UHGV virus genome: UHGV-1366603
Source: a virus
Reading direction: 5' to 3' (one strand)
Length of the DNA stretch: 64,000 nucleotides
The notes below the pieces were generated by a model. That model had not been told where the DNA came from. It was given only the letters and a program-made list of their open reading frames with translations, and did no database searches. Shown in pieces: positions 12,399 to 61,099 of this stretch (position 1 is the first letter of the stretch; each line of letters starts with the position of its first letter). A program made the position numbers and the translations under genes.

Positions 12399-13040
12399 AT
12401 GACACGTTACAATTTAGCCGACTTCTGCGATTGTGCCTTTTCTGTTGAAGGTGACAAACTTGTAATGGCTGCGCCAAACGCAAGAGTTTTATCGTTGTAT
12501 CAAGCCGAAGTTATTGCAATTTCGATTTGGTTGGCAAGGGCTATAGACGGCGGCTGTAAGGACCTTGATAAAGAAGTGTTGAAAGTCGGTCGTCGTGAAT
12601 TTGTGTATAAAGCAGAAATCCAGAACCGTTTACCAAAGACCTTTTTAAGCAGCTTGCTTAAAGATGTCAACACCCCAGTTGTCAGCCGAACATTTGACGG
12701 GGTGAAATATTACTCTTTTGAAGATTCGCACGTTGCTATCTGTGAAGGTGAGAATAAGTTTTTTACGACCGTTATCTACTTTCGTATTGCTGAACCTACG
12801 AAAGAAGAACTGGTTTGCAATACTGCGAACGATGTGGCCGTGATGCGTATGGACGATATCACCAGTGAACTATCTGGATTAAATGACATACCGCGTATTG
12901 TGGAGCGAGTCTTGGAAGGAGACGATTACTTTAAGTTGCTTCCGCTGGTAGCAAGCGAAGAAACAGAACAGGAAAGCGCTTTCATTCAGGTTAACCTTAC
13001 CGCTGCACAGGCGGTGGATCGTTTCTTCGAAGCTTTATAA
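12399..13040 (+). CDS. hypothetical protein (213 aa)
   Basis: ORF with TAGGAGAAT RBS downstream of promoter-like motif. Confidence 0.8.
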   Translation: MTRYNLADFCDCAFSVEGDKLVMAAPNARVLSLYQAEVIAISIWLARAIDGGCKDLDKEVLKVGRREFVYKAEIQNRLPKTFLSSLLKDVNTPVVSRTFDGVKYYSFEDSHVAICEGENKFFTTVIYFRIAEPTKEELVCNTANDVAVMRMDDITSELSGLNDIPRIVERVLEGDDYFKLLPLVASEETEQESAFIQVNLTAAQAVDRFFEAL

Positions 13041-24474: not shown

Positions 24475-26760
24475 ATGAAAGATACCCGAATCTCTAATTT
24501 AGAGAAACTCGTAGAAGCCGGTACTAGTCTGGCCCAAAACGTCATCGGCAACAACACCGCCAGCGAAATGTGGAATACGATTGTTGCAGGCGAGTCCGTA
24601 CGCAGCAACGCAAAAGTGTTTGGCGCTCTGCGTGACGAAGCATCACAGCACTATGCCAACGCTTTTGGTGGCAAGAAAATGTCTCATGCTGCGACTGTCG
24701 CCTCCGCAATGATTCTGGGCGCAGCTAACCACGGTAAAGACCTGCAAGAACGTGTTGCCCAGGAATACGCTAAGCCGGAATTCCACACCAAGTATAACCT
24801 GGATATTGGTATCCCTGGTGCGCAAGGTGGTGACTGGGGTCGTGAGCGCATGGTTGTTGCTCAGGAATACTACAGCAACAAAGACTACGACAAAAACCTG
24901 GGCCTGACCTGGACCCTGAACGTACGTGCTCTGGAAACTCAGTCCAAGTTTGCTGAAACACTGTTCCCGACCATTACCGTCGACACCAACGATGTTGGTA
25001 TTACCGTACGTACTAAAGTGACTACCGTTTCTCGCGGTATCATGAACGCGCTGCTGAGCAAAGACGTCGTTGAAGATCATCGTCGTCCGCTGCACAACGC
25101 ACTGACTGACCACACCGTTCTCCAGGACGAAGCGATCAACATCGTTCCTTACGTAATGGAAACCGGTGAAAACCAGGAATACTTCGTAAGCGAAGAACTG
25201 GTTCCGAACGAAACCGTTCGCCTGGGTCGTGTACCTCCGTATCCGACTAACTACCTGAGCTTTGCAAACGACACGCTGAACCTGTTCCAGCTGTCTGCGC
25301 ATCCGGGTATCGTTCAGGAAGGTTACGAAGAAACTGATGAAATCGCACCGGGTTGTGCTCTGGGCAGCCTGCTGATTTCTGTACGTAAACCGGCCGAAGA
25401 AGCGAAAGCGGGTAAATTCATCAAACTGCACGTTCGTGACATGCAGTTCGCAACCTTCCAGCGTCCTGCTGAAGGTGACGGCCGTGAACTGGTTCTGCAA
25501 TTCCGTCGTACCGCGTTCTCTCTGAATGCGAAAACCACTGACTGGAAAGGCGACGCTATTCCGGCTCTGCAAGCACTGGGCCAGAACTCCTACACCCTGC
25601 GCTACGTTATCACCATCACCATGTCCCTGTTCACCAGCGGCCAGTTCGGTGGTAAAGTAGACATTTCCGGCCACAAACTGGAAATCGAAGGTCTGTACGA
25701 TGCAACTGGTAACAAAGTTGATACCAAGTCTGGTACCGGTAAAGTTATCCTGGATGGCCTGAAACTTGAACTGATGGGCTGGCGCTTCGATGGTACTCGT
25801 ACCAACGAAAACCGTCGTACCCAGGGTCTTCTGCTTGACCCAATTTGGGAACAGGAAAACTACAAACTGCAATACGGTTCTCCGATTCTGACCAAGTCTC
25901 CGGTTGGTGTTGAATACGACGACACTGAACGTCTGGACGACCTGATCTCTGCGGTGAACATCCGTAACGAACAGCTGGCTATTACTCAGACGCTGTCTTA
26001 CACCGAAGCAGTACGTAACGCAGCCGCTGCGATGATCACTCCGTGGGACAAACCGGCTATCCGTGGTCTGGGCCGTCACTGGGTTGCTCCGTGGTTCAAA
26101 GAGTCTGACTACAAAGTCGATGAAGTTGTTCAGTCTCTGGATACCAAAGAAGCGCTGATCAACGCTCGTCAGGGTCTGTTGCAGCGTATCGGTAGCCAGG
26201 TAACTCAGGCTATCCAGGATTCTCGTTTCATTCCTGCACTGCGCCTGCTGACCGCTGATCCGGACATTCTGCCGAAAGTTATTATCGCAACTGACGAACC
26301 GACTGCATCTATGCTGCTGCTGGTTCAGGGCGACCAACGTCTGCTGGGCGACCGTTATGAATACGAAGTCGTTACCACCAACGATGACCGCTGGCGCATC
26401 TACAACGCAGCTGACGATTCCTGGACTCGTCGTCTGCAATGGTTCCTGAAAGTTCCGACTGCGGACGATGGTTCCTACTGCGTACTGAACTGGGGTAACC
26501 ACTTCTGGTCTCCGATCATGGTTACCAACATCAACATCCAGCGTAACGGTTCTACTTCTAAAGAACTGGCTGTACAGCCGCGTAACGCGCATATCTGCCA
26601 CTGCCCGATCACTGGTCTGATTTGGGTTAAAGGCATCACCAAACTGGTTGAAGAAAAACTGGCTTACAACGTTTCTGTAGAACAGAACGGCCAGAAACAA
26701 ACCGACGGTGGTGTAGCAGGTAATGTTGCTGGCGACGGTAAAGACAAAGCTGGTAAATAA
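24475..26760 (+). CDS. major virion structural protein (761 aa); candidate major capsid protein (alternatively tail sheath)
   Basis: Extreme host-optimised codon usage, strong terminator after it, 685-aa antisense shadow ORF; size matches phiKZ-type major capsid proteins (from memory). Confidence 0.85.
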   Translation: MKDTRISNLEKLVEAGTSLAQNVIGNNTASEMWNTIVAGESVRSNAKVFGALRDEASQHYANAFGGKKMSHAATVASAMILGAANHGKDLQERVAQEYAKPEFHTKYNLDIGIPGAQGGDWGRERMVVAQEYYSNKDYDKNLGLTWTLNVRALETQSKFAETLFPTITVDTNDVGITVRTKVTTVSRGIMNALLSKDVVEDHRRPLHNALTDHTVLQDEAINIVPYVMETGENQEYFVSEELVPNETVRLGRVPPYPTNYLSFANDTLNLFQLSAHPGIVQEGYEETDEIAPGCALGSLLISVRKPAEEAKAGKFIKLHVRDMQFATFQRPAEGDGRELVLQFRRTAFSLNAKTTDWKGDAIPALQALGQNSYTLRYVITITMSLFTSGQFGGKVDISGHKLEIEGLYDATGNKVDTKSGTGKVILDGLKLELMGWRFDGTRTNENRRTQGLLLDPIWEQENYKLQYGSPILTKSPVGVEYDDTERLDDLISAVNIRNEQLAITQTLSYTEAVRNAAAAMITPWDKPAIRGLGRHWVAPWFKESDYKVDEVVQSLDTKEALINARQGLLQRIGSQVTQAIQDSRFIPALRLLTADPDILPKVIIATDEPTASMLLLVQGDQRLLGDRYEYEVVTTNDDRWRIYNAADDSWTRRLQWFLKVPTADDGSYCVLNWGNHFWSPIMVTNINIQRNGSTSKELAVQPRNAHICHCPITGLIWVKGITKLVEEKLAYNVSVEQNGQKQTDGGVAGNVAGDGKDKAGK

Positions 26761-43240: not shown

Positions 43241-44374
43241 ATGTCAACGTTAGATAGCGACTTAGAAGTGCTTTGTGACGATTACGACCGACTCGTAGCG
43301 TTAGAATCCATTGGAGTAAAAGATAATTATCCGGCTATCGTTGCTATCCGTAAACGTTGGCTTTTGGATGATGTGGTTGTTGCGTCAGAGTCTTCGGCCA
43401 TGATGCACCGCGCACAGTTTTTGTCAGACACGGAACCTGATAAAGGGATAGGCAAAGCGGCTGCGCGACTCACCGGACGTGCTGTTCGTGGCGTCAGTCG
43501 GGTAGCAGGCCGTGCTGCCAGTGCAGGTGCAAAAGCATCAGCGAACTTTGCAGGTAAACATTCCAAACAGCTTGCTTTACGTTTTGTGGACTTTGCTGAG
43601 GCTGCGGGTAAAGAAGTCATTAAGGAATTAAAAGAAGCGACGTCTAAAGCGACGACCTTAGAGCGCAAACTGCAAAAGTTAAATGCACGTCTAAGTTTAA
43701 TCGGTGACAAAGACACCTTAAAACCGGTTGACTGCGACACGGGAAGCTGGACGACCAAAGTTTGTTTAGAAGACAAACCTAATGTAAAAGCGTGTATTGA
43801 GTTCAGTAAGAACCTGAACGCAATGGATGCGATGGTCAACGATTATACCGTTAAAACGCGTACTATTCTCGGTAAGAGTAAGAAAGTTACTGAGAGTGGT
43901 TTGGAGAGAGTAGGTCGGTCAACGAACTGGGCGATTAAACGTAGTGCAGGGTTGTTCGGTATTATCGATCCGTTTAAAACGGTGAAAGCGTATCCGTGGC
44001 CAGGTAACGTGGTGGTCGTTGAACACGACAACGGTAAGATTGAGTGGGCGATTGCCCGTGATGGTGATTTTGGCCACACAATCAAATCTCTGAACTTACA
44101 CGAAATCGGTTCAGCTCTCGAAGCCGTTGAAAAAATTATCCGTGCTTTACGTCAGCGTGGTACGAAGCGTCGTAGTGTTGGTTATACCGGTATTTACGAT
44201 GAAATTCAGCGAATGAAAAAAGAATTGAAATCGTTAGACGGTCGTGAATTACGTGACGCTACCGTTCGGTATAAAAACGCACTGCGTTTAGAAGATGCGT
44301 TTACTACCTCGTTAGTGCGTGTTGCGGAAGGCTTACTGGAATGGTGCAGGTTGTCGCTGATTGAGGTTAAATAA
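43241..44374 (+). CDS. hypothetical protein (377 aa), Ala/Arg-rich N-terminal region
   Basis: ORF; TAATG coupling to downstream GNAT. Confidence 0.75.
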   Translation: MSTLDSDLEVLCDDYDRLVALESIGVKDNYPAIVAIRKRWLLDDVVVASESSAMMHRAQFLSDTEPDKGIGKAAARLTGRAVRGVSRVAGRAASAGAKASANFAGKHSKQLALRFVDFAEAAGKEVIKELKEATSKATTLERKLQKLNARLSLIGDKDTLKPVDCDTGSWTTKVCLEDKPNVKACIEFSKNLNAMDAMVNDYTVKTRTILGKSKKVTESGLERVGRSTNWAIKRSAGLFGIIDPFKTVKAYPWPGNVVVVEHDNGKIEWAIARDGDFGHTIKSLNLHEIGSALEAVEKIIRALRQRGTKRRSVGYTGIYDEIQRMKKELKSLDGRELRDATVRYKNALRLEDAFTTSLVRVAEGLLEWCRLSLIEVK

Positions 44375-48403: not shown

Positions 48404-49390
48404 ATGGTATATCGTAAAACGATAGAAAGAACCTCTTCTGATTTAACCGTAGGACGCTTAACCCGTAGAGATATTCGCAATCCTCAACTTCAGGCATGTT
48501 TAACGGGCCCTAACGGTGCGGTGATTCGTGAAGCACTGTGCAATACTGAGCTGAATACGTTCTCTTTACAAAAAGGAAAAACAATCCAAGGGTTTATCAT
48601 CACAAAACACATTTACGGTGATCCAACGTTACACTGCTTGTATATGCATGAAATTGTACCTGGGTGTTTGAACAAACTGAGCCTTCTATTGGTACTTGAC
48701 TATACTGGGTTTACGTACCTTAACCGAATTGCCAGGGGCGTGGAAGAAATCGCTGAGCTTAACGATTTAGGGTTTAGACATACCCACACAGCATATCGTT
48801 TAGGTACGCGTAAGCTACTGGATGTCACTTTACCGACGAACGTGAAGAACGTCTCCGGCGACTTCTATAAAGACTTAACCAGAGCACAACGTGAACAGCT
48901 CATGACGTTGTTTGGCACTAGCGTCGTTGAAAACATCAATGCTGACCCTGTAACGCGTTCTCGACAAATAATGCCGCAAGTTGAAACATTGGTGGAATTA
49001 GCGCGGCACGTCAATCACTACACTTACGTTTGGATGGACGGTAATGACGTTGTGGGTGTGGTGCAAGTTAAATCACGCAATCTTAGCGAGTGCGAACTAA
49101 AAGCCATTGCGGTAAGTGAATCACACCGGGGCCGTGGGATTGGGCGTGCGTTGTTGTACCGTGCTTTACAGATTGCTTCGACAACAGCAGCACCGTTAGA
49201 AATAGGCTGTTACAATAACAACCCAGCATTTAGACACCTGGCTGTAGATTTGTTTAAATTCCGTCCCTACGAGTACGAATTTGTTTTAGTGCGCGACGAC
49301 GATGTCGTCAGTTGGGAGCGTCGGAAAAACCGCGTCGAGTTAGTGTTAGGCGACGAAATGTCATCGTTACAAGGCGGAATTAATGCATAA
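48404..49390 (+). CDS. GNAT-domain protein (328 aa), C-terminal acetyltransferase domain, possibly tandem GNAT
   Basis: C-terminal AIAVSESHRGRGIGRALLYRALQ GNAT motif; AAGGAG RBS. Confidence 0.65.
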   Translation: MVYRKTIERTSSDLTVGRLTRRDIRNPQLQACLTGPNGAVIREALCNTELNTFSLQKGKTIQGFIITKHIYGDPTLHCLYMHEIVPGCLNKLSLLLVLDYTGFTYLNRIARGVEEIAELNDLGFRHTHTAYRLGTRKLLDVTLPTNVKNVSGDFYKDLTRAQREQLMTLFGTSVVENINADPVTRSRQIMPQVETLVELARHVNHYTYVWMDGNDVVGVVQVKSRNLSECELKAIAVSESHRGRGIGRALLYRALQIASTTAAPLEIGCYNNNPAFRHLAVDLFKFRPYEYEFVLVRDDDVVSWERRKNRVELVLGDEMSSLQGGINA

Positions 49391-50198
49391 ACCAATTATA
49401 AAGTGGATGGGTGGTAAATCACGGATTATCGACACCTTACTACAAGTCTTACCTGAACGTACAACATTCGTTGAACCGTTTGTTGGTGCAGGGTCGGTGT
49501 TTTTGAACACACGTTATAAACGTTACATTCTTGCTGACTCTAACCCCGATTTAATACAGTTGCTGAATGTGGCGAAAGACCAACCTGAAGAACTTATCTT
49601 AAAGTCGAAACCACTATTCGAAGACGGTAACGATTGTATTAAGTATATGGAACGCCGTGAGTTGTTTAATCGCGAAACGGATATGGCTCCGTTAGACCGG
49701 GCAGCAATGTTTCTGTACTTAATGCGTCACGGTTTTAACGGGATGTGTCGTTACAACGGCAGCGGGGGTTTTAACGTTCCGTTTGGTCGCTATCCTAACG
49801 GTGTGTATTACCCGTTAGACGAGATTCGTGGTTGGGCTAAACGTTGTCAAGAACCGGAATACTTAGAAATTGTTTGTGAAGATTTCCGAACAGTTTTAGA
49901 GCGTACACCGGAAGAGAGTGTGATTTACGCAGACCCGCCTTATATACCGCTCTCAGAGACCGCTAAACACGCCCAATACCATCGGAAGGAGTTTTCCCAG
50001 GCTGACCATCGAGAACTCGCCAGAGCGCTGTTTAAGCAGGTTGAGAGGGGGAATAGCGTTGTGTTGTCCAATGCAGATACGTTACTAACGCGTGAGATTT
50101 ATTACGGGTTCGAATGGCGTTCTGTGGAAGTAGGGCGATACATGGGTGCGTCAGGTGCTGCCCGTAAAACGGTAACGGAATTGTTAGGAGTGCTCTAA
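49383..50198 (+). CDS. dam: DNA adenine methyltransferase (Dam, GATC N6-adenine MTase)
   Basis: IKWMGGKSR, VEPFVGAGSVFLNT, YILADSNPDLI, FNGMCRYNG.GGFNVPFGRY, DPPYIPLS, all matching E. coli Dam from memory. Confidence 0.9.
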   Translation: MHKPIIKWMGGKSRIIDTLLQVLPERTTFVEPFVGAGSVFLNTRYKRYILADSNPDLIQLLNVAKDQPEELILKSKPLFEDGNDCIKYMERRELFNRETDMAPLDRAAMFLYLMRHGFNGMCRYNGSGGFNVPFGRYPNGVYYPLDEIRGWAKRCQEPEYLEIVCEDFRTVLERTPEESVIYADPPYIPLSETAKHAQYHRKEFSQADHRELARALFKQVERGNSVVLSNADTLLTREIYYGFEWRSVEVGRYMGASGAARKTVTELLGVL

Positions 50199-50971
50199 TG
50201 CGTATAGTGGATATCCACGATTATCGTAATGACCATTTAGCGATTGGTGTCGATGGGAAAATGGTTTCGTTAACCCGCGTACGCAAAGGGTTAATGGAAA
50301 AGGAGATCATTCGGGAGTCCGAAGACCCTACCTTTATCATCCTTTCGAACACTAATCAGTTACAGGGCATCTTTTCAGGGCGTGCTGACGGTAAGATTTT
50401 CTATATGTCCGCAATCGTTGTGTTTGCGAAGAAGAACATTAACTTCGCCCAACTCAAACGTTTGTTAAACGTGAAGATGTTTGATGTCACCTACCCTGCT
50501 AATGACCTAAAACGTCGTGATCAGTTAATGACGTTTTTAGGTATGCAACCAACGTCTATCGATTACGACCTTACGATTACTGAGAAGCCGGAAGTGCGCA
50601 CTGACTTACCTGACGTAGACGATGTTGAATCCTTAACGTTAGAAGAGACGTTTACGATTCCTAAGGTTGTTAATGTCAACCTGGACACGCATTGTTTAGG
50701 GTTGTTAGCCGTAGGTGCAGCAGAAGGGTTGTGTTGTCGTAAAGACGGTAAGGTTGAAGGTATCTTAGTCTATTCGAAAATCAACGAAAAGACGTTTGCC
50801 ACTGAAGGCTTTTTCTATAACGATTGCACTTACGGAAACGCACTACTAACCACGTATTTCCGTATTGCTTATCTGAAAGGCGCAACTGTACGCCTCACGT
50901 TTCCATACACAGCCCCACCGTCTATGGGTGGAGTTGAGGTAGAACCATTAACCGGCCACTTTATCTTTTAA
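50198..50971 (+). CDS. hypothetical protein (257 aa)
   Basis: TAATG coupling to Dam. Confidence 0.75.
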   Translation: MRIVDIHDYRNDHLAIGVDGKMVSLTRVRKGLMEKEIIRESEDPTFIILSNTNQLQGIFSGRADGKIFYMSAIVVFAKKNINFAQLKRLLNVKMFDVTYPANDLKRRDQLMTFLGMQPTSIDYDLTITEKPEVRTDLPDVDDVESLTLEETFTIPKVVNVNLDTHCLGLLAVGAAEGLCCRKDGKVEGILVYSKINEKTFATEGFFYNDCTYGNALLTTYFRIAYLKGATVRLTFPYTAPPSMGGVEVEPLTGHFIF

Positions 50972-50980
50972 GGATGATGA

Positions 50981-51208
50981 ATGGAAATCAAACGTATTGT
51001 AACCAAAAACAAACAGATTGTTTACGTCGCAGGCGATAACGAATTCTCGGCGGTAATCAACAGCGAAAATGCGCTCATTATCGGTTATCCGGGTAAAGTT
51101 ATTACGCGCAGTCACCAACGTGTGATTGACAAACTTATCGCAAAAGCGAAAGCGCGTGACGGTGTTGGTTCAGTACAAACCCACACGGGGTTAACGCTGG
51201 CCCTCTAG
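50981..51208 (+). CDS. hypothetical protein (75 aa)
   Basis: ORF with AAGGA RBS. Confidence 0.6.
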   Translation: MEIKRIVTKNKQIVYVAGDNEFSAVINSENALIIGYPGKVITRSHQRVIDKLIAKAKARDGVGSVQTHTGLTLAL

Positions 51209-51247
51209 TCAGCAGGTAATATGACCTCTTAACTGGAGACTTTAATA

Positions 51248-51754
51248 ATGAGTGAGACTCTGGATTTTAATCAGCTCGAACAACACGATTTCGACCTCGG
51301 TGTTCGTGATATCGATGCTGATCATGAAACACGTTGTAAAGAGCTGTTTAACCGTTACGGTCAGCTCATCACCGGTGCCTCTGACGACACCGAATTCAGT
51401 TTAGATGAGTTTGAAAAAGTTCTGTCGTGTTTTATCACTGACTGTCTGGCGAAGAAAGCGTTGCTGGTCGAACTGAACTTAGACTCCGTCGAACCTACTG
51501 ATGCTCACGCCGTGTTGAAAGAGTCCATTATCCCAACTGATGAGATTATGGACACGGTAGCCGGTATTCGCGGTACGTTTGAAACTGCCGTAGAAGAATA
51601 CACGGAACAGCTTCGTGAATCAGGACTGACGTTGTGTGCGCCAGCAGGTGAGCCATTACCGTCCGACGAAGAAACTGAAGAAGCGCGTAGTCGCTTAGCG
51701 CGTTATGTTATTACGTCTATCTTGGTAGATGATCGCGAAGAGAATCTGCTATAA
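51248..51754 (+). CDS. strongly acidic protein (168 aa), candidate DNA mimic
   Basis: GGAGACTT RBS; very high Asp/Glu content. Confidence 0.7.
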   Translation: MSETLDFNQLEQHDFDLGVRDIDADHETRCKELFNRYGQLITGASDDTEFSLDEFEKVLSCFITDCLAKKALLVELNLDSVEPTDAHAVLKESIIPTDEIMDTVAGIRGTFETAVEEYTEQLRESGLTLCAPAGEPLPSDEETEEARSRLARYVITSILVDDREENLL

Positions 51755-51757
51755 GCT

Positions 51758-51797
51758 GCCCCTCTCTCCGTTTGGAGAGAGGGTGTATTTATTTTTA
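51758..51797 (+). terminator. intrinsic terminator
   Basis: GCCCCTCTCTCC-GTTT-GGAGAGAGGG then T-rich tail. Confidence 0.85.
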
Positions 51798-51852
51798 CGC
51801 GTATAGCCGTAGTTATGCACAAGTAAACAAAATTAATTGAGGAAACAATCTG

Positions 51853-52170
51853 ATGTGGTTAAGTGCTATTCACCGTGATTTGCCAAAACGTGACGTGTCG
51901 TTTACTGTTGAGGACGCACCGATTGAGGTAGGCGTCGCTAAATTCGAAAGAATCGAAGAAGGGCAGTTTGTTGTAATGGATGGCAACGACAACGAATTTA
52001 TGTTGTATCATCCAGAAGTGGATACCTCTGAAATTTGTGACGGTGTTCTTTTGTTGTCCTGGCAAAACCAAGAAACTAAAGAATGGATGTGGTGTGTTGC
52101 TAAACCGACAAATGAAGCTGGAACCGCATACGTGTTTGGGGAAATTTATGTCGAACCCGAGCCACACTAA
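51853..52170 (+). CDS. hypothetical protein (105 aa)
   Basis: ORF with GAGGA RBS. Confidence 0.7.
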   Translation: MWLSAIHRDLPKRDVSFTVEDAPIEVGVAKFERIEEGQFVVMDGNDNEFMLYHPEVDTSEICDGVLLLSWQNQETKEWMWCVAKPTNEAGTAYVFGEIYVEPEPH

Positions 52171-52217
52171 TTTCGATATAGCTTCAGCATTGTGTTGTTA
52201 ATGGTCTAAAAAATTTA

Positions 52218-52248
52218 AGATATATTTCATCTATGTGAGAATTCTCAC
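52218..52248 (+). promoter_or_regulatory. promoter-like element with perfect 14-bp palindrome GTGAGAATTCTCAC (52235-52248)
   Basis: AGATATAT… then TGTGAGAATTCTCAC; 24 nt upstream of ATG 52272. Confidence 0.45.
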
Positions 52249-52271
52249 TTAACTAAATGGAGTAATCTAAA

Positions 52272-52541
52272 ATGGCTAAGATTTACATTGTTGAGAAACG
52301 TGCGGGTAATGTTCTTTCCTATTACGAAGAAGGTAAACCTGAAAAAGTTAAAACACTCAAACTCGACGGGTATGAAGTGAAGAGTTTACGCAAAGGTGTG
52401 AAGATTACCTTTAAAGGTTTGGCTCGCGTAAATAACTTACACATTGTTAAGGCCGATGGTACGATGGCTGCGTTAGCGCCTGTCAGTGCTGCGAAAACGA
52501 CAGCCGGTCGTGGCTGCTACGGTAGCAGTCGTAAGATTTAA
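52272..52541 (+). CDS. small basic protein (89 aa), monocistronic unit
   Basis: TGGAG RBS; promoter-like element before and terminator after. Confidence 0.7.
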   Translation: MAKIYIVEKRAGNVLSYYEEGKPEKVKTLKLDGYEVKSLRKGVKITFKGLARVNNLHIVKADGTMAALAPVSAAKTTAGRGCYGSSRKI

Positions 52542-52546
52542 GCAGT

Positions 52547-52588
52547 GCCCCTCTCTCCTAACGGAGAGAGGGTACTTTTATTTTTCTT
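52547..52588 (+). terminator. intrinsic terminator
   Basis: GCCCCTCTCTCC-TAAC-GGAGAGAGGG then T-rich tail; stem identical to terminator 51758. Confidence 0.85.
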
Positions 52589-52599
52589 CGAGGTGCGTG

Positions 52600-53088
52600 A
52601 TGACAACGGTATTAGTAACAAAGGATTACATTTTAGCTGACCGACTTGTGGACTATGCTGGCACAGTTAAAGAATTGCCCAAACTACATAAACACAAAAA
52701 CAAGTTTGTTTTCTACACTGGGGAACGTGTACTGGACACCGAGTTTTGGAAAATATCAATGACCGCTGTTATAGAAAAATATTTAGACGTGGATAAACGC
52801 AAGGAAGTTGAGCCTTTGCTTGTGGATTTTTTCGAAAAAGAGCGAATATTCGATCAGATTGTCATTTTTACGGCTAGAAAAACTCATTGGCTCACATTAG
52901 TAGCAGGTAAGTTTGAAGATCTTGTAATAAATGAAAATGCGGTTTGGGCAACGGGTTCTGGTGGAGGTTTTGCACGGGCTGCTTGGGCGACAGGAATATC
53001 AGAAAAGAAAATTATGCCGTTGGTAGGTTCTATTGATCCGTCTAGCTCGACCACCTATGACTTGTTTTACAGGAAGAGTTTACGATGA
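52600..53088 (+). CDS. HslV/proteasome-beta-like Ntn-hydrolase peptidase candidate (162 aa)
   Basis: Start set at ATG after GAGGTG RBS (track ORF 52486 runs through the terminator); N-terminus MTT…; ENAVWATGSGGGFARAAWATG resembles HslV [21 protein letters not shown]. Confidence 0.5.
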   Translation: MTTVLVTKDYILADRLVDYAGTVKELPKLHKHKNKFVFYTGERVLDTEFWKISMTAVIEKYLDVDKRKEVEPLLVDFFEKERIFDQIVIFTARKTHWLTLVAGKFEDLVINENAVWATGSGGGFARAAWATGISEKKIMPLVGSIDPSSSTTYDLFYRKSLR

Positions 53089-53606
53089 AAATAAATGCGG
53101 TTTTAATTGGCGATGAAATATTCGTGAATACAAAAACACAATATTTGTGTTACGAAGGTATTACTGTAATAGATGAGTATTACGGTAAATACGGTTGGTG
53201 GATTCCATCCCCTAATTCTTTACGATTAGAAGAAGCTTTAACTGCTGAAGAGAACAAACTGGATGATGAATGGACTTATATTAGCTCTGTAATTGATGTT
53301 AGCGGACGAATTAAAGACGTCTACTGGGCTAAAGGTATAGGGTGGCGTGTTACGCTACATCAAGCCACACCGGTAAGATTGTTGTACGACCACACTGACA
53401 CTTCGGAGTTAGCGTTTACCATTGAGACGCTCTCGGTGCGTAAAGATTTAGATAACGTAGGTAAAGGGAAGTGGTCGATTGAACGTATAGAGGAAATTCT
53501 CAGTCACTTTAAAGCCAACAACCAATTTAAACGTTGGTGTACGCTACCTGAGTTAGTAGAAGAGTTGAAAAAGCGGGATTGCAAGCCGCTACCTTTTAAT
53601 CCGTAA
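53085..53606 (+). CDS. hypothetical protein (173 aa), translationally coupled to HslV-like gene
   Basis: ATGA overlap. Confidence 0.7.
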   Translation: MKINAVLIGDEIFVNTKTQYLCYEGITVIDEYYGKYGWWIPSPNSLRLEEALTAEENKLDDEWTYISSVIDVSGRIKDVYWAKGIGWRVTLHQATPVRLLYDHTDTSELAFTIETLSVRKDLDNVGKGKWSIERIEEILSHFKANNQFKRWCTLPELVEELKKRDCKPLPFNP

Positions 53607-53650
53607 CTTTTTACGAATGCAGCTATTTTAATGATTAGGAGAATATAGAG

Positions 53651-54046
53651 ATGACAGCAATACTAGGTGTAATGGCAAGAAAAGCCGACATCGTTGAAAC
53701 GTTTATTGAACAATACAACAACTCGCCGTATACGCGTTTTAGATTACATAAACCGAAGAATAGTACAGAATGGGTTCGTTGGTTCAGGATTTGGGATAAA
53801 ACAATAAGTAAAATTGATCCGTTATTTAGAATAACGGTTGAACCAGCTTATTGGATTGTAATGGAAATTTCGCTATTACGTATTATCGAAAAACGTCCGA
53901 TTGACACTATGACGATGTTTGGGAAAGATACGTATAAAATGTTGACCAACGGTTTTGTGGGTAATGGGGAACACACGTTGTATCAAGCGATGCTGGAAAT
54001 GTGTTTGTTCGATTTAGTTACTTACGAATTGGGGATTTCAAAATGA
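53651..54046 (+). CDS. hypothetical protein (131 aa)
   Basis: TAGGAGAAT RBS. Confidence 0.7.
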   Translation: MTAILGVMARKADIVETFIEQYNNSPYTRFRLHKPKNSTEWVRWFRIWDKTISKIDPLFRITVEPAYWIVMEISLLRIIEKRPIDTMTMFGKDTYKMLTNGFVGNGEHTLYQAMLEMCLFDLVTYELGISK

Positions 54047-54507
54047 ATTGCTTCGAATCTAAAGAAATTGTTGAGTTGTTTAAGCAGCGTGAGAAAACAA
54101 CATTCCGTGACCTGTACGATTCCGATTACCGTCCTCTGTTTGCGGTATTGTTGAAACTGGATAAAGAACCCGAAATCGCACTAGCAGAGGTTCAGCATCA
54201 TCACATCAGTTTCGTGTTAACTGAAAACAAGGAACGTTGGGTAGATGACATACTGGGTCGTATTGCGCTTTTGGAAACACCGCATCGTTGGGAAGTGGTT
54301 ATTCAGAAATCACTCTTCCCGCGTGAAGACATTTTCAACAACTATCGTCCGAAACAGTATTACAACCACGACGGGTCGCCAAAACGTGCTTTCCTGGCAC
54401 CACAACACTTCGTAACCTACGTAACGTTGCGTTACAAAGACACCGTGGTGCCGTTTGACACCTACCTGGAAATGCGTGAGATAATCTTAGGGAAGAATCC
54501 GTCATGA
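54043..54507 (+). CDS. hypothetical protein (154 aa)
   Basis: ATG overlapping previous stop (ATGA); track ORF 54001 over-extends. Confidence 0.65.
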   Translation: MNCFESKEIVELFKQREKTTFRDLYDSDYRPLFAVLLKLDKEPEIALAEVQHHHISFVLTENKERWVDDILGRIALLETPHRWEVVIQKSLFPREDIFNNYRPKQYYNHDGSPKRAFLAPQHFVTYVTLRYKDTVVPFDTYLEMREIILGKNPS

Positions 54508-54986
54508 TTCAATTTTCTGTTGACTCAGAAAGACTGGCGTCATTTAAAGAGCGTGCTCAGACTGCAATCAAAAACGGTTACATTGAGAAAGGTGTTCGTG
54601 ATACTTGTAAACTAATCAACGGCCATCCGCACCTGGCGACAATGTGGAGCTGTGAAGGTCACGGTATGTATTCTAAATCGCCGGGAAACTTGCATATTGT
54701 TTTTGCAACAGATGGTATCGGAAGCCAGCTTCCAATGCAGATTATGTCCGAACTTGCAAAAAGCGATCTGCCCAATTTCTGGAATCTTAGTTTGTGTCGT
54801 CTTTATATACCGGACGCATACACGGATTTGGTATATCTTGAACCTGACTATGGGTTAAACACCGACGACACGTCTTACTGGTCTTGGAAAATCGGATACA
54901 TGTGCTTGATTAATCGTCCGGCATTAATTGAGGCACGACAGGCTCTTTATAAAGCATTTCACACAGTATTAGTTGAGAATAAATAA
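54504..54986 (+). CDS. hypothetical protein (160 aa)
   Basis: ATGA coupling. Confidence 0.7.
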   Translation: MIQFSVDSERLASFKERAQTAIKNGYIEKGVRDTCKLINGHPHLATMWSCEGHGMYSKSPGNLHIVFATDGIGSQLPMQIMSELAKSDLPNFWNLSLCRLYIPDAYTDLVYLEPDYGLNTDDTSYWSWKIGYMCLINRPALIEARQALYKAFHTVLVENK

Positions 54987-55678
54987 TGGCTACCAAACAA
55001 AAGAAACCTCGTAACAAAAAGTATAACCCGAAAGCAGCTGCTAACCGTACTGCACACACCATTGCTGAAAATGCGTTAAACCGCATTACTTTCGTCGGTA
55101 GCTCAATTCGTCCTATCGGTCCGTACGCAGGTCGTGGTTTCCAGTTTACAACGTCGCCGCGTATGCGCATGGCAGCGACCGATATGTTAATCGGTGGTCT
55201 GTTTGACGAACCACGTAACTGGAAGTTATGGGTTGCGCATCTGTACGAAACGGATAATGGTGTACAGGCAGAAACCGTCGTGGCCACGCTTGACGATTAC
55301 ACGTTAAGTGATTTCTGTCAACACGGCGACAAAATCATCAAGTCGCTACGTGAGACAGAAGAAAACTACTTCGGTTACGCTTTCGTTGCTGCGCCTAACG
55401 AACGCTATGATTTCGACCAGGGAGAAGAACGTTTACTGGAAAACTTCATGCATTCTGGACTGTTAGACAAATCCTTACACTTACCTGAAGAAGAACTGAT
55501 GGTTTCGCGTAAGGATATGGTAACGTTGCTGTTAGCCGACCGTGGTCGTTTTGATATCACCGAGCCGCATGTGCGTAAAGTACAGAAACTCGTGGATAAA
55601 GTAGACGAAACTGACCTGGACACTAATGAAGTCGCAACACGTATTCAAAGTGTAGTAAACCAGATTGAGGATTACTAA
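54986..55678 (+). CDS. hypothetical protein (230 aa), basic N-terminus
   Basis: TAATG coupling. Confidence 0.75.
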   Translation: MATKQKKPRNKKYNPKAAANRTAHTIAENALNRITFVGSSIRPIGPYAGRGFQFTTSPRMRMAATDMLIGGLFDEPRNWKLWVAHLYETDNGVQAETVVATLDDYTLSDFCQHGDKIIKSLRETEENYFGYAFVAAPNERYDFDQGEERLLENFMHSGLLDKSLHLPEEELMVSRKDMVTLLLADRGRFDITEPHVRKVQKLVDKVDETDLDTNEVATRIQSVVNQIEDY

Positions 55679-55680
55679 AC

Positions 55681-56211
55681 GTGATAGCACGACTTGTGAG
55701 TTGGTTTAAGCAATGTCGTGCAAAGGCGGTCGAATGGCCGCCTATTACGCATGACGAGAAAGTGGCTCTTTTTTTGAGATATAACAAAGACTTGAAGAGA
55801 TTAGGTGGATTAATGCGCTTAACGGAACGTCAGGTTTTTGCTAAGATTTCGAGCAGCGAGTTGCGTAAAGAAGTAATTCCACACCTATCCTTTTTAGGGC
55901 AGGTTTATGCAATTACGACAGAGGAATTTTTATCAACCCAAGGTAGCGAACGGCCACATATTCGGTTTTCCGTCGTAGGTGAACCTGATACGGTAGGTGA
56001 AATCGATTTTAAGATGCTGTATCGCAGAATAAAAGATGATGGGTTTATACATGTTAAACGATTATCAGAAACTTCTGTGGTGATTTATCATCGCACTGAT
56101 CAGGATTTGTTAGGGTGCGTTATAAGGCTAACAAATTTACGTAGTTTTTACGTTGATTTACTTACAGACTTTTATCCGGAACCTTGGTGTTTTATAGATG
56201 AAAATAAATGA
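55681..56211 (+). CDS. hypothetical protein (176 aa)
   Basis: Apparent GTG start after GAGGA RBS. Confidence 0.6.
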   Translation: MIARLVSWFKQCRAKAVEWPPITHDEKVALFLRYNKDLKRLGGLMRLTERQVFAKISSSELRKEVIPHLSFLGQVYAITTEEFLSTQGSERPHIRFSVVGEPDTVGEIDFKMLYRRIKDDGFIHVKRLSETSVVIYHRTDQDLLGCVIRLTNLRSFYVDLLTDFYPEPWCFIDENK

Positions 56212-58093: not shown

Positions 58094-61000
58094 ATGAGAA
58101 AACATTTTCAGCGTCACGCGATTAGCTACGCGTTATCGTTAGCTTACGGACACCAATCCTTCGTTACCCGGAATACGGGAACGACTCACGACGCGCACAA
58201 CGAACACTATATTCAAAACGAAGAAGGTGTTCTGTCGAATAACCGTCATTTCATTGCTGACACTATGGCGGAATACCAACCGAACGGGGACGCGACGACC
58301 GAGGGTCAGTCGTTACACGTTATTGGTTACTGCCACATGTATATCGCAACGAAAGACGAAAGATGGTTAGATGCGGCGAAACACGCCTGGGATGCGTACA
58401 ACACGTACTTCTACGTCGGACAACCTATTCCGACCACACCCCAGCGTCGGATTTGTAACTGGTTGGTAAACGGGAAAGAACCGGTATTAGCACATTACCC
58501 AATACACCCTACAGAACCTACCCAAGGTGGGTATAAAAGCGTCCCTGTAAGGTTTACAAACGGACAGTGTAAAATACCGCATGGTGCACCGTTCTGGGGA
58601 GAGTATTTGGATACCTTTACGTTTGCGCATCGTGGTCACCCTGCCTGGGAAGCCATTAACGCAGACGTACAGATTATTAAGGAAGACAAAGAAGGGTCAA
58701 TTAATTGGGAAGACGTTTTAACTCACGTTATTACCAATCCTGATAAACCCTACGAGGCCAAAGCCTGGGTTGATTGGCCTACGTTATTAAACAACGCTAC
58801 AGGGTACACCCCGCTTTGGGGTGGCAGTGCAACAAAAGCCCCTAAACACGACGTTGACTGGATAATTGCCTGGACAGGTAACAAAATCCAGGATAGTGAG
58901 ATTATTGAGACAGGATTAGCAGACGCTGATAAAGGTACCGTACAGTTAAAAGACACGCAGTTAAACGGTGTCTATTTGATTAACTACGCGGTAAAACTGC
59001 CTGTCGAACACGGGGGTTACGAGTTTAAACGTAACGAACCGTGGCACAACCGTCCAGTTCACACGCCGTTCTTAGGATCGAAAAACCAATACGGTAACGC
59101 CGCTGATGCTGAACTGTGGTTTATTGACGCCTGTTATTTGCTGTGGCGAATCACGGGTGAAGAGAAATACAAACAAGCATTAGACTGTGCTTTCTACACA
59201 GCACACGAGTACACGTATATTGATGCGGTAGATAAATTCTTCCGTCGTTCTACCGCTGCGGAAACACCGTTTACGGATGGTATTTCGTACGACTTCAATT
59301 ACCCGGACACCGTAAGTGCTACCTACGGCCGTGATGAGAATGGGGATATTACCATCCATGTGCCTGAAGCGGCACAACACTTTATGGAGCAGAAAGCGGT
59401 TCGATTCAGGATTAACAAAGACTCCAAACTACGTGTCACGTACGGCGGGGTTTGTAAGAACGGTGATCCTGTCTACTGTAAAGCAATGGTAAACATTAAC
59501 CCTGTGAAAGCCGACACCGAGGAAGTAAACTGGTACGGCTTAACCTTACCTCAGTCTACGGTAAATACCGTTAAGCAGTACGATATTGACTTAGGCCAAC
59601 TTGCCCGTATCACCACCCCAGAAGGAGAAGACTACCTGATAGCCGACGCCCGTGCGTGTTCGGACTATGGTGGTTGTACGTGGGAAGAACGTTTTGAGAA
59701 CAGCATTTACGACGGTCGCGCGGGTACCGTTATAGAAGCTGAATTTCCTGATGACGGTGCCGGGTTTATTATCGGGTTCTGGTTAACCGCTGAAGAGAAG
59801 GTAAAACCGGTTTCTATTGTCTACCGTGCGGACGCAGATTTTAACCTGCGTTTAGTCGACAGTGATAACTGGCGTTGGTGGTGGATGTTACCCAACACAA
59901 ACAACGAATGGCGTCAGGTAACGTTGAATCCGGATGATGCCACACTTTCCGGTTATCAGCCAGACCACACAGACGACGACCCTAAACCGGCAGCACCGAA
60001 TTTCGATAAGGTGGATCAGGTCACGATTCTCCCTGACTCTACGGTTGACCATGCACATTTTGCCTACTATTGTGTTAACGATGTTCCACCGCTCTTTAAT
60101 AAAGACGACGGTTATATTCTCACCTTCCGTATTGGGTTACGCGGCGGTGGAGAGTATGATGCGAAGGTCGGCGACTGTACGATCAAAGATTACCGATTGG
60201 ATTCGTTAGCGTATTGTCCGGGTACGATACCGTTCTCGAACAACTATTCAGAAGGTTCAGAACAGTTAGGTGCCTGGCACGGGATGCCTTATCCGGGTTA
60301 TCAGTATCCGTTTATGTACACTATCCACAAAGACGACCGGTATAAGCTGTGGTTAGATAACCAGATTCAATTCTTGTACGATTCGCAGTTGGCTTACCAA
60401 CGGCAACTCGGTGAATTAGGGCCCGGTTGTGCAGCGTATATCTGGAACCGTTGGGACAACTACAGCTACGGAGAAGCAGATACCTGGACAACGTTCCATT
60501 GGGGCGACGACCATCCGTGGGCAGGGTATCAACCTCGTGCGTTTCATGCTGCGTGTCGGTGCTGGTACGAACTGAAACTAAGAGGTAAAGAGATTCCTGA
60601 GGCGTTAACAAGCTATATTGAAAACTGGGTGAATTGGCTAGGTGGGTTTGTGGATCGGTTTAACGGACACACCCCTAACGAGTTCCCTACAGCACCTGAT
60701 AAACCCGTTTGGGTGGAAGATGACTTCACCGCACATATGTGTGCGTTGTGGTTAGCAGGCTGTTGTTGGGCATTACTCGCTGGTGCAACTAATCCGAACT
60801 ACGATAAGGTAGTTAATGCGGCAATTAAGGAGTTAGGTGAAGGGTTTACGATTACCTCAATTCCGAATAAGCCGATTAACGGGGCGTGGTCTCCAGCCGC
60901 TCGAGAGTCTTCCGATAACGGAATGGCTTTTGGGTTCTACAGTGGGGAAGCGTTCCGTGCGTTAGGTCTCTACGTTACTTACAAAACCTACGGAGCCAAC

Positions 61001-61099
61001 GCTAATATTTATCGTGACTTAGCGATTGCTGACCACAGTCAAGCGGTCTTAGACGTTACGTTAACGATAGAAGACGATGCATTAAAACCAGAGCAATAA
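58094..61099 (+). CDS. large tail spike/fibre-associated protein (1001 aa), possible polysaccharide-degrading domain
   Basis: ORF starting directly after anchor-domain gene; large aromatic-rich protein next to tail fibre. Confidence 0.75.
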   Translation: MRKHFQRHAISYALSLAYGHQSFVTRNTGTTHDAHNEHYIQNEEGVLSNNRHFIADTMAEYQPNGDATTEGQSLHVIGYCHMYIATKDERWLDAAKHAWDAYNTYFYVGQPIPTTPQRRICNWLVNGKEPVLAHYPIHPTEPTQGGYKSVPVRFTNGQCKIPHGAPFWGEYLDTFTFAHRGHPAWEAINADVQIIKEDKEGSINWEDVLTHVITNPDKPYEAKAWVDWPTLLNNATGYTPLWGGSATKAPKHDVDWIIAWTGNKIQDSEIIETGLADADKGTVQLKDTQLNGVYLINYAVKLPVEHGGYEFKRNEPWHNRPVHTPFLGSKNQYGNAADAELWFIDACYLLWRITGEEKYKQALDCAFYTAHEYTYIDAVDKFFRRSTAAETPFTDGISYDFNYPDTVSATYGRDENGDITIHVPEAAQHFMEQKAVRFRINKDSKLRVTYGGVCKNGDPVYCKAMVNINPVKADTEEVNWYGLTLPQSTVNTVKQYDIDLGQLARITTPEGEDYLIADARACSDYGGCTWEERFENSIYDGRAGTVIEAEFPDDGAGFIIGFWLTAEEKVKPVSIVYRADADFNLRLVDSDNWRWWWMLPNTNNEWRQVTLNPDDATLSGYQPDHTDDDPKPAAPNFDKVDQVTILPDSTVDHAHFAYYCVNDVPPLFNKDDGYILTFRIGLRGGGEYDAKVGDCTIKDYRLDSLAYCPGTIPFSNNYSEGSEQLGAWHGMPYPGYQYPFMYTIHKDDRYKLWLDNQIQFLYDSQLAYQRQLGELGPGCAAYIWNRWDNYSYGEADTWTTFHWGDDHPWAGYQPRAFHAACRCWYELKLRGKEIPEALTSYIENWVNWLGGFVDRFNGHTPNEFPTAPDKPVWVEDDFTAHMCALWLAGCCWALLAGATNPNYDKVVNAAIKELGEGFTITSIPNKPINGAWSPAARESSDNGMAFGFYSGEAFRALGLYVTYKTYGANANIYRDLAIADHSQAVLDVTLTIEDDALKPEQ

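Follow-up and report, generated by a model that had tools for sequence, protein, structure and literature searches.

A divergent HslV-family peptidase homologue translationally coupled to a small partner protein in a jumbo phage lineage without a detected HslU-like unfoldase gene

Proteasome-type peptidases have been widely annotated in phages, and several bacterial relatives of HslV offer points of comparison. Anbu and BPH are bacterial proteasome-beta/HslV-like threonine peptidases that have no dedicated ATPase gene, and Bacillus subtilis CodW is an HslV homologue with an N-terminal serine nucleophile that works with CodX, a homologue of HslU. On the phage side, Phobos gp123 and CR5_121 carry the public (RefSeq) label 'peptidase HslV family', and in pEa_SNUABM_43 a 'putative HslV-like ATP-dependent protease' stands beside a 'putative HslU-like ATP-dependent protease'. 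SPN3US, Machina, Caitlin, ChrisDB, phage EL and others carry the same label on a gp1-type gene, which is gene 1 of many jumbo phages. Here we examined a 64,000-nucleotide stretch of the virus genome UHGV-1366603 (the window), part of a ~222-kb phiKZ-related jumbo phage, which encodes a predicted divergent HslV-family N-terminal-threonine peptidase of 162 amino acids (aa) (V1; 52600-53088, including the stop codon) and, overlapping its end, a 173-aa partner protein (53085-53606). All window coordinates below refer to the plus strand. Two bacterial database records were used for comparison: NZ_CP173450.1, a 221,873-bp circular 'plasmid' of Escherichia coli strain 98232 that is colinear with the window at 93-98% nucleotide identity over 62 of its 64 kb, and NZ_CP134650.1, a 222,441-bp 'plasmid' of Enterobacter ludwigii 51A:C that is ~92% identical across the 6-kb locus (window 50000-56000).

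V1 runs from an ATG at 52600 to a TGA at 53086-53088, preceded by a Shine-Dalgarno-like GAGGTG (52589-52594) 5 nucleotides (nt) upstream of the start codon. Its product begins MTTVLVTKDYILADR, with an MTT start and therefore without a propeptide, the Thr being residue 2, directly after the initiator Met; residues 111-132 read NENAVWATGSGGGFARAAWATG. A longer frame could be opened at a GTG at 52486, although it would take in the 3' part of the preceding gene and a strong terminator-like hairpin; we place the start at 52600 because every homologue starts at MTT: this start is present in all 23 family members and the GTG is used by none. The 162-aa form is also the one annotated by PGAP in NZ_CP173450.1. 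A preliminary description of this DNA, made from the sequence, had reported an open reading frame (ORF) at 52600 that starts MTT and contains an HslV-like segment, and both observations were verified. The E. coli HslV segment that it had cited was also correct, and the E. coli HslV sequence used for comparison matched PDB 5ji3_A over 176 residues with one difference.

Homology of V1 to the HslV/proteasome-beta superfamily is well supported by profile comparisons. V1 matched phrog_23394 at 6.4e-11 (residues 1-162) and phrog_1040, the 'peptidase HslV family', at 2e-7 (residues 1-159; profile positions 14-157). The same phrog_1040 span is matched by E. coli HslV at 1.6e-22, so that this family bridges V1 and HslV; Machina gp125 and CR5_121 match the two PHROGs families likewise. 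A narrow profile built from 23 family members was run against 1.84 billion representative proteins and recovered 67 clusters; one was a 44-aa fragment, and the others measured 144-282 aa. Nearly all were matched from residue 1 and nearly all begin MTT, with one sub-branch beginning MSL. A broad family profile (A7) was then assembled from 61 of these relatives, which are 16-35% identical to V1 and six of which match the Pfam family PF00227 (Proteasome) directly (best 2.5e-7). Compared with solved structures, A7 placed HslV first (Trypanosoma brucei 2.3e-12, Staphylococcus aureus 1.9e-7, Thermotoga maritima 4.5e-7, E. coli 2.8e-6), followed by 20S beta subunits at ~1e-4 and then BPH at 7e-4 (another BPH at 0.035). 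Alignment with E. coli HslV by hhalign gave a probability of 94% and an E-value of 1e-7 over the first 52 columns. The narrow 23-sequence profile did not find HslV in the PDB and, aligned by hhalign with the single E. coli HslV sequence, matched the GSGG segment alone (probability 33%); the link to HslV was made solely through PHROGs and the broadened 61-sequence profile. V1 is accordingly a very divergent homologue within the superfamily.

The predicted catalytic residues are conserved well beyond the close family. Thr2 (codon 52603-52605), the predicted N-terminal nucleophile after Met removal, corresponds to HslV Thr1 in both MAFFT and hhalign alignments; all 23 close family members have Thr at this position, and of the 61 distant relatives 54 have Thr and seven have Ser. 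Asp14 (52639-52641), which lies in an A-D-R motif and corresponds to Asp17 of HslV and the 20S proteasome, is invariant in all 61, while Lys28 (52681-52683), the counterpart of HslV Lys33, is present in 60. The loop G119-S120-G121-G122-G123 (52954-52968) was aligned with the G-S-G-G loop of HslV by both hhalign and HMMER; Gly119 and Gly121 are invariant in the 61 sequences, of which 34 have Ser and 27 have Thr at residue 120. The hhalign alignment pairs Thr2 with Thr1, Asp14 with Asp17 and Lys28 with Lys33, and the GSGG segments align separately. Because Asp14, Gly119, Gly121, Lys28 and Thr/Ser2 are near-invariant across 61 divergent relatives, the resemblance to HslV is not a matter of chance. 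Thr2, a Lys near position 30 and the GSGG loop had been singled out in the preliminary description as positions whose conservation should be checked, and all proved to be conserved, the middle loop residue being Ser or Thr. This constellation, together with the PHROGs, PF00227 and A7 matches, bears out its tentative assignment of the gene product to the HslV/proteasome-like N-terminal nucleophile (Ntn) hydrolases.

V1 and the partner gene are both under purifying selection. Within the lineage without an HslU-like gene, pairwise ratios of nonsynonymous to synonymous substitution (dN/dS, omega) were 0.05-0.21 in V1 and 0.05-0.17 in its partner. Constraint on V1 is greatest towards its two ends, in the N- and C-terminal thirds (omega 0.04-0.2), and the N-terminal third, which contains Thr2, Asp14 and Lys28, has values of 0.04-0.12; the middle third (0.17-0.36) is the most variable between alleles and lineages. 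No frameshifts or stops were found in ~50 V1 sequence clusters of the lineage. Two allele types of V1, sharing 68-72% protein identity, occur in genomes in which the flanking DNA is 92-98% identical and the neighbouring proteins have 89-96% amino-acid identity. The synonymous divergence of V1 is far above that of the adjacent partner gene (window 52600-53085 compared with the sequences L005-L008, NZ_CP173450.1 and NZ_CP134650.1), and the divergence of V1 points to allele exchange or recombination at a single gene.

The partner gene lies directly 3' of V1 in every lineage in which V1 is found. The stop codon of V1 and the start codon of the partner overlap in an ATGA (53085-53088) that was read from the sequence and indicates translational coupling; the overlap is real because position 53085, the first of the partner ORF, falls within CGATGAAA. 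Machina and pEa_SNUABM_43 (12525-12528) have an identical 4-nt overlap, and Derbicusvirus has a 2-nt gap. At the protein level the partner matched phrog_25529 at 1.3e-19 and Machina gp126 at 5e-17 (tblastn), and hhalign related it to the Derbicusvirus protein at the same position (phrog_8172; probability 94%, E 9e-8, 157 columns), though PHROGs separates the two. V1 and its partner are thus adjacent in all three phage lineages with V1, and the partner is the sole invariant genomic companion of V1; the ATGA coupling to a 173-aa protein given in the preliminary description was verified along with the pairing. We also considered the partner as a degenerate HslV/alpha-like paralogue, its N-terminus and predicted order of strands and helices being vaguely alike, and dropped this idea for want of evidence (hhalign probability 0.5%), which does not disprove it.

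Phages of the genera Machinavirus and Derbicusvirus encode, ~2 kb downstream of the V1-partner pair and in the same orientation, an HslU-like AAA+ protein of 578-687 aa, the gene for which is followed by that of the S80 prohead protease. Machina gp129 matches the hslU model TIGR00390 at 1.4e-60 and is a true HslU homologue with an AAA+ domain interrupted by a long insertion; its N-terminal region is closely like that of E. coli HslU. Many other Erwinia and Salmonella jumbo phages carry the HslU-like gene, RAY gp116 being a described homologue. Caitlin and ChrisDB are examples of phages that have it with no V1-partner pair in the vicinity, and peptidase and unfoldase are therefore not strictly tied. 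Since an HslU-like gene lies near the pair in the sister genera, the ancestral arrangement would have been a phage HslVU-like ATP-dependent protease.

No such gene was found in the lineage of the window. A hidden Markov model (HMM) built from four phage HslU-like proteins produced no match at E < 1 in the 64-kb window, which also contained no G..G.GK[ST] motif and no AAA+ ORF, and the segment 55678-56604, where the Machina-type HslU block would sit, holds just three small ORFs. In the complete NZ_CP173450.1, tblastn, HMM and Walker-A pattern searches and the annotation revealed no HslU-like sequence or remnant, and the prohead protease is located elsewhere (171118-171921). NZ_CP134650.1 gave no full-length HslU-like match, and a pattern scan of four IMG/VR contigs of this lineage found no HslU-like gene. 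The absence is most simply read as a loss, that is, as a derived state. An adjacent HslU-like AAA+ gene had been reported missing in the preliminary description, which agrees with both the window and the colinear 221,873-bp record; its term 'stand-alone' holds for this lineage, but the condition appears to be derived, given the HslU homologue ~2 kb downstream in the sister genera. A related absence has been published for pSal-SNUABM-04, in which HslV genes were placed at ORF 1 and ORF 116 and HslU was said to be absent (PMC7823757). This is contradicted by the genome itself (MT710307.1), in which a 90%-identical HslU-like gene at 106144-107874 is labelled 'putative DnaA protein'. Separately, SPN3US-like phages (JN03, SPLA1a, EC001 and Lh1B; e.g. 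MT799840.1 105688-105891) match just the first 68 residues of the HslU-like protein, and this match may be a truncated remnant.

Taking these results together, we think it probable, although by no means assured, that V1 is an active HslV-family N-terminal-threonine peptidase with the coupled partner as its companion, and that the phage HslU-like unfoldase is ancestral and dispensable here. From the observed homology, residue conservation, coupling, synteny, HslU absence and purifying selection we infer the catalytic activity and oligomeric state of V1, the role of the partner and the targets as follows. Host methionine aminopeptidase would take off Met1, after which Thr2 would form the catalytic centre through its free amino group and its hydroxyl. 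Asp14, Lys28 and the G119-S-G121 loop would do what Asp17, Lys33 and the GSGG loop do in HslV. V1 presumably forms rings that enclose the active sites and would be co-produced with the ATGA-coupled partner, which could act as a regulator, adaptor, cap or dedicated substrate. In this lineage the phage unfoldase gene would have gone and the pair been retained; since the unfoldase is gone from the genome while the pair stays selected, the pair should work without a phage unfoldase. Most likely V1 would act as a peptidase that depends on the partner but not on HslU and that has unfolded or specific proteins as its substrates; borrowing of the host HslU is less likely.

Several results weigh against this interpretation, and they concern the assignment of V1, its fold, the partner and the mechanism. 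V1 alone gave zero Pfam matches, a phmmer search of the PDB with V1 returned zero HslV, and on the NCBIfam HslV models V1 reached a motif-level match of 0.04, with 13.6 bits on TIGR03692 (cutoff 157.75) and 13.4 bits on the equivalog NF003964 (cutoff 137). Because V1 fails this equivalog test we treat it as a homologue within the superfamily and not as an HslV orthologue, and use the name 'HslV-family homologue' and not HslV. AlphaFold2 run on the 23-sequence alignment gave a best model with a mean predicted local distance difference test score (pLDDT) of 61.9 and a predicted template modelling score of 0.51; the other four models were near 40, so that just one of the five exceeded 45. Two features of that best model nevertheless speak for the assignment. 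Its elements follow the order six strands, two helices, four strands, two helices, which is that of HslV, and a Foldseek comparison of this poor model with the PDB returned 20S beta, HslV or Anbu chains as eight of the top ten matches (best E 4.6e-3, probability 0.95-0.96), with Anbu at rank 9 (E 0.2) and connectase chains, weakly, at ranks 16 and 44. The fold comparison proposed in the preliminary description is only weakly positive owing to the quality of the model; with the fold unconfirmed by structure prediction, the case rests on sequence profiles. The partner gave no match to Pfam, NCBIfam, PADLOC or PDB profiles, and its AlphaFold2 model (pLDDT 43) was unusable, Foldseek returning nothing with it, so that the role given to the partner is a guess from gene order. 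Whole-genome absence of HslU for the phage of the window, whose own sequence was seen over 64 kb, is taken from the 93-98% identical colinear NZ_CP173450.1. In the literature that we searched, no work on the function, activity, expression or interactions of a phage HslV-like protein was found. Finally, canonical HslV has very little peptidase activity unless HslU is present, so that a mechanism without an unfoldase is not what would be expected by default.

That expectation leads to a different proposal, in which V1 docks on the HslU hexamer of its host (Salmonella, E. coli or Enterobacter) to give a hybrid ATP-dependent protease by which degradation in the infected cell is redirected. We regard this as unlikely, though as a possibility to be reckoned with. 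The known hosts of this phage type are all enterobacteria, which carry hslVU, and canonical HslV needs HslU for real activity; purifying selection on V1 has persisted after loss of the phage unfoldase, and the central third of V1, presumably the counterpart of the HslV surface helices, is the part that differs most between alleles and lineages. Against these points, V1 is ~25% identical to E. coli HslV (MAFFT) and far below the equivalog score, and conservation of the pockets that bind the HslU tail is therefore not to be assumed. The phage HslU-like proteins end in ...TLRKTLRG or ...RAKEKP, unlike the C-terminal tail of E. coli HslU, which suggests that the ancestral docking mode was already different, and it is the partner alone, and no unfoldase, that accompanies V1 invariably. 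A bolder form of the partner-dependent mechanism seems to us improbable: peptidase and partner would constitute a new two-component, unfoldase-independent proteasome-like machine, in which the partner gates or activates the Thr peptidase or is itself processed in a connectase-like manner, which jumbo phages use against specific host or defence proteins and to which the HslU-like gene is a mere add-on. A PADLOC search with V1 produced a meaningless match to SduA (0.004) and no support for a defence or anti-defence class; the host-takeover or anti-defence use suggested in the preliminary description, like the use of host HslU, is conjectural.

V1 could also have kept its Thr nucleophile for something other than degradation, as a site-specific processing enzyme, a transpeptidase like the proteasome homologue connectase or a small-molecule amidase, with the partner possibly its dedicated substrate. 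That V1 is coupled in translation, one to one, to a single small protein in every lineage would fit such an enzyme, as would the independence of V1 from an unfoldase gene in this lineage, the distance of the V1 family from canonical HslV and, weakly, the connectase chains at Foldseek ranks 16 and 44. We nevertheless hold it to be quite improbable, as the profiles place HslV and proteolytic 20S beta subunits first, with no connectase among the 60 matches listed, a true HslU unfoldase nearby in the sister genera points to protein degradation, and in the partner we saw no conserved motif of the cleavage type. The same loss of the phage unfoldase gene that leaves room for these proposals is what might be expected if V1 were a decaying remnant of a phage HslVU, or a scaffold that cleaves nothing, and the low identity of V1 (68-72%, against 89-96% for its neighbours) between otherwise 92-96% identical genomes could be read in the same way. 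Conservation and selection speak to the contrary: the residues at the catalytic positions are invariant across the lineage and near-invariant in the 61 distant relatives, dN/dS values of 0.05-0.21 (0.04-0.12 in the N-terminal third) are evidence against a decaying relic, and the ~50 clusters are free of frameshifts and stops. An inert V1 is accordingly very hard to credit.

Elsewhere the window contains genes for the major head protein (24475-26760), a phiKZ-type internal head protein (43241-44374) and a tail protein (58094-61099). A megablast search of the locus against a phage collection found no match and hence no near relative there; this phage type is present in the databases only as 'plasmids' within bacterial assemblies, and V1 was seen on many ~224-kb contigs from Salmonella isolate assemblies. 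The complete circular 'plasmids' and the Salmonella contigs suggest that in enterobacteria the phage exists in a carrier, pseudolysogenic or plasmid-like form. The Erwinia/Salmonella Machinavirus phages Machina, Huxley, pEa_SNUABM_43 and pSal-SNUABM-04 have the same gene order around the locus, at 26-56% protein identity where similarity was detected, and the Derbicusvirus phages CR5, Phobos and Derbicus share it more loosely. Upstream of V1, at 48404-50198, a GNAT N-acetyltransferase gene (328 aa) overlaps a Dam-type N6-adenine methyltransferase gene (271 aa), a pair kept at the same place in Machinavirus. A terminator-like hairpin at 52549-52572, with a 10-bp stem (CCCTCTCTCC/GGAGAGAGGG) followed by a T-run, ends the upstream gene (52272-52541), just 3' of which it lies, 27 nt before the V1 start codon. 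A second hairpin with the identical 10-bp stem (CCCTCTCTCC....GGAGAGAGGG) and a T-run, for which 0 would be expected by chance, is situated at 51760-51783, just 5' of the gene at 51853-52170. Just 3' of the partner, a 131-aa ORF (53651-54046) is present in the window, L005, L006 and L008, is absent from L007, NZ_CP173450.1 and NZ_CP134650.1, and gave no family match. The adjacent overlapping ORFs that follow, 54043-54507 and 54504-54986, are tandem paralogues, because both match phrog_7413 (8.5e-5 and 1.8e-26, respectively), and the latter has a sub-threshold match to Pfam TYW3 (0.0011).

Among described systems, V1 is most readily compared with HslV (ClpQ; E. coli PDB 1NED, 1G4A and 5JI3). 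The two are of similar length (162 vs 176 aa), lack a propeptide, start Met-Thr-Thr and have equivalent Asp, Lys and G-S-G-G positions; HslV is the best-scoring solved family for A7, and sister phages have an HslU homologue nearby. They differ in that V1 shows ~25% identity and falls below the HslV equivalog and Pfam thresholds, has A-D-R around the Asp where HslV has G-D-G, and is coupled to an unrelated 173-aa protein without an adjoining hslU or any in the phage genome. Proteasomal 20S beta subunits score below HslV with A7 and, unlike V1, have a propeptide; as for an alpha-type companion, hhalign related the partner neither to V1 nor to the beta family (probability 0.5%). Anbu and BPH (PDB 5NYW, 5OVS) gave weak matches (BPH 7e-4; Anbu Foldseek rank 9). 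They score worse than all HslV chains and are bacterial, not phage, proteins. We know of no equivalent of the coupled partner for either. The nucleophile of CodW has a parallel in the Met-Ser-Leu sub-branch of the extended phage family (7 of 61), which shows the same swap, while V1 itself has Thr.

Within phages, the orthologues Phobos gp123, CR5_121, Machina gp125 and pEa_SNUABM_43_00125 belong to the same family and share the synteny (GNAT, Dam, ..., V1, partner) with a closely spaced partner, but are 25-30% identical to V1 and have the downstream HslU-like gene. The gp1-type peptidase of SPN3US-, Machina-, Caitlin/ChrisDB- and EL-like jumbo phages belongs to the same superfamily and has the same catalytic residues; it is nonetheless a separate paralogue, closer to canonical HslV, not followed by the 173-aa partner and missed by the narrow V1 HMM. 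Such a second paralogue, of 166 aa (MTTIVFDGKTLACDGQ...AIGSGAQYA), is encoded outside the window's span on the minus strand of NZ_CP173450.1 (150905-151405; A7-HMM E 6e-20), where it adjoins a tRNA-Ile gene and has a 4-nt overlap with an upstream 125-aa ORF not annotated by PGAP. The view in the preliminary description that a peptidase of this kind would be an unusual phage device does not stand, as orthologues were already annotated, the gp1-type paralogue is common and a 2020 paper noted HslV without HslU (PMC7823757). V1 is instead a modest variant of an already annotated, uncharacterised phage gene family, and the practical value of the locus is correspondingly modest, in better annotation of a recurrent jumbo-phage gene pair that may be a candidate for host-proteome manipulation. 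Its wider interest is as a natural experiment: in Machinavirus and Derbicusvirus the pair is accompanied by a phage HslU-like unfoldase, and in the Salmonella/E. coli/Enterobacter lineage it stands without one, still under selection. This makes it testable whether a viral HslV homologue needs an unfoldase, borrows that of its host or relies on a new small partner.

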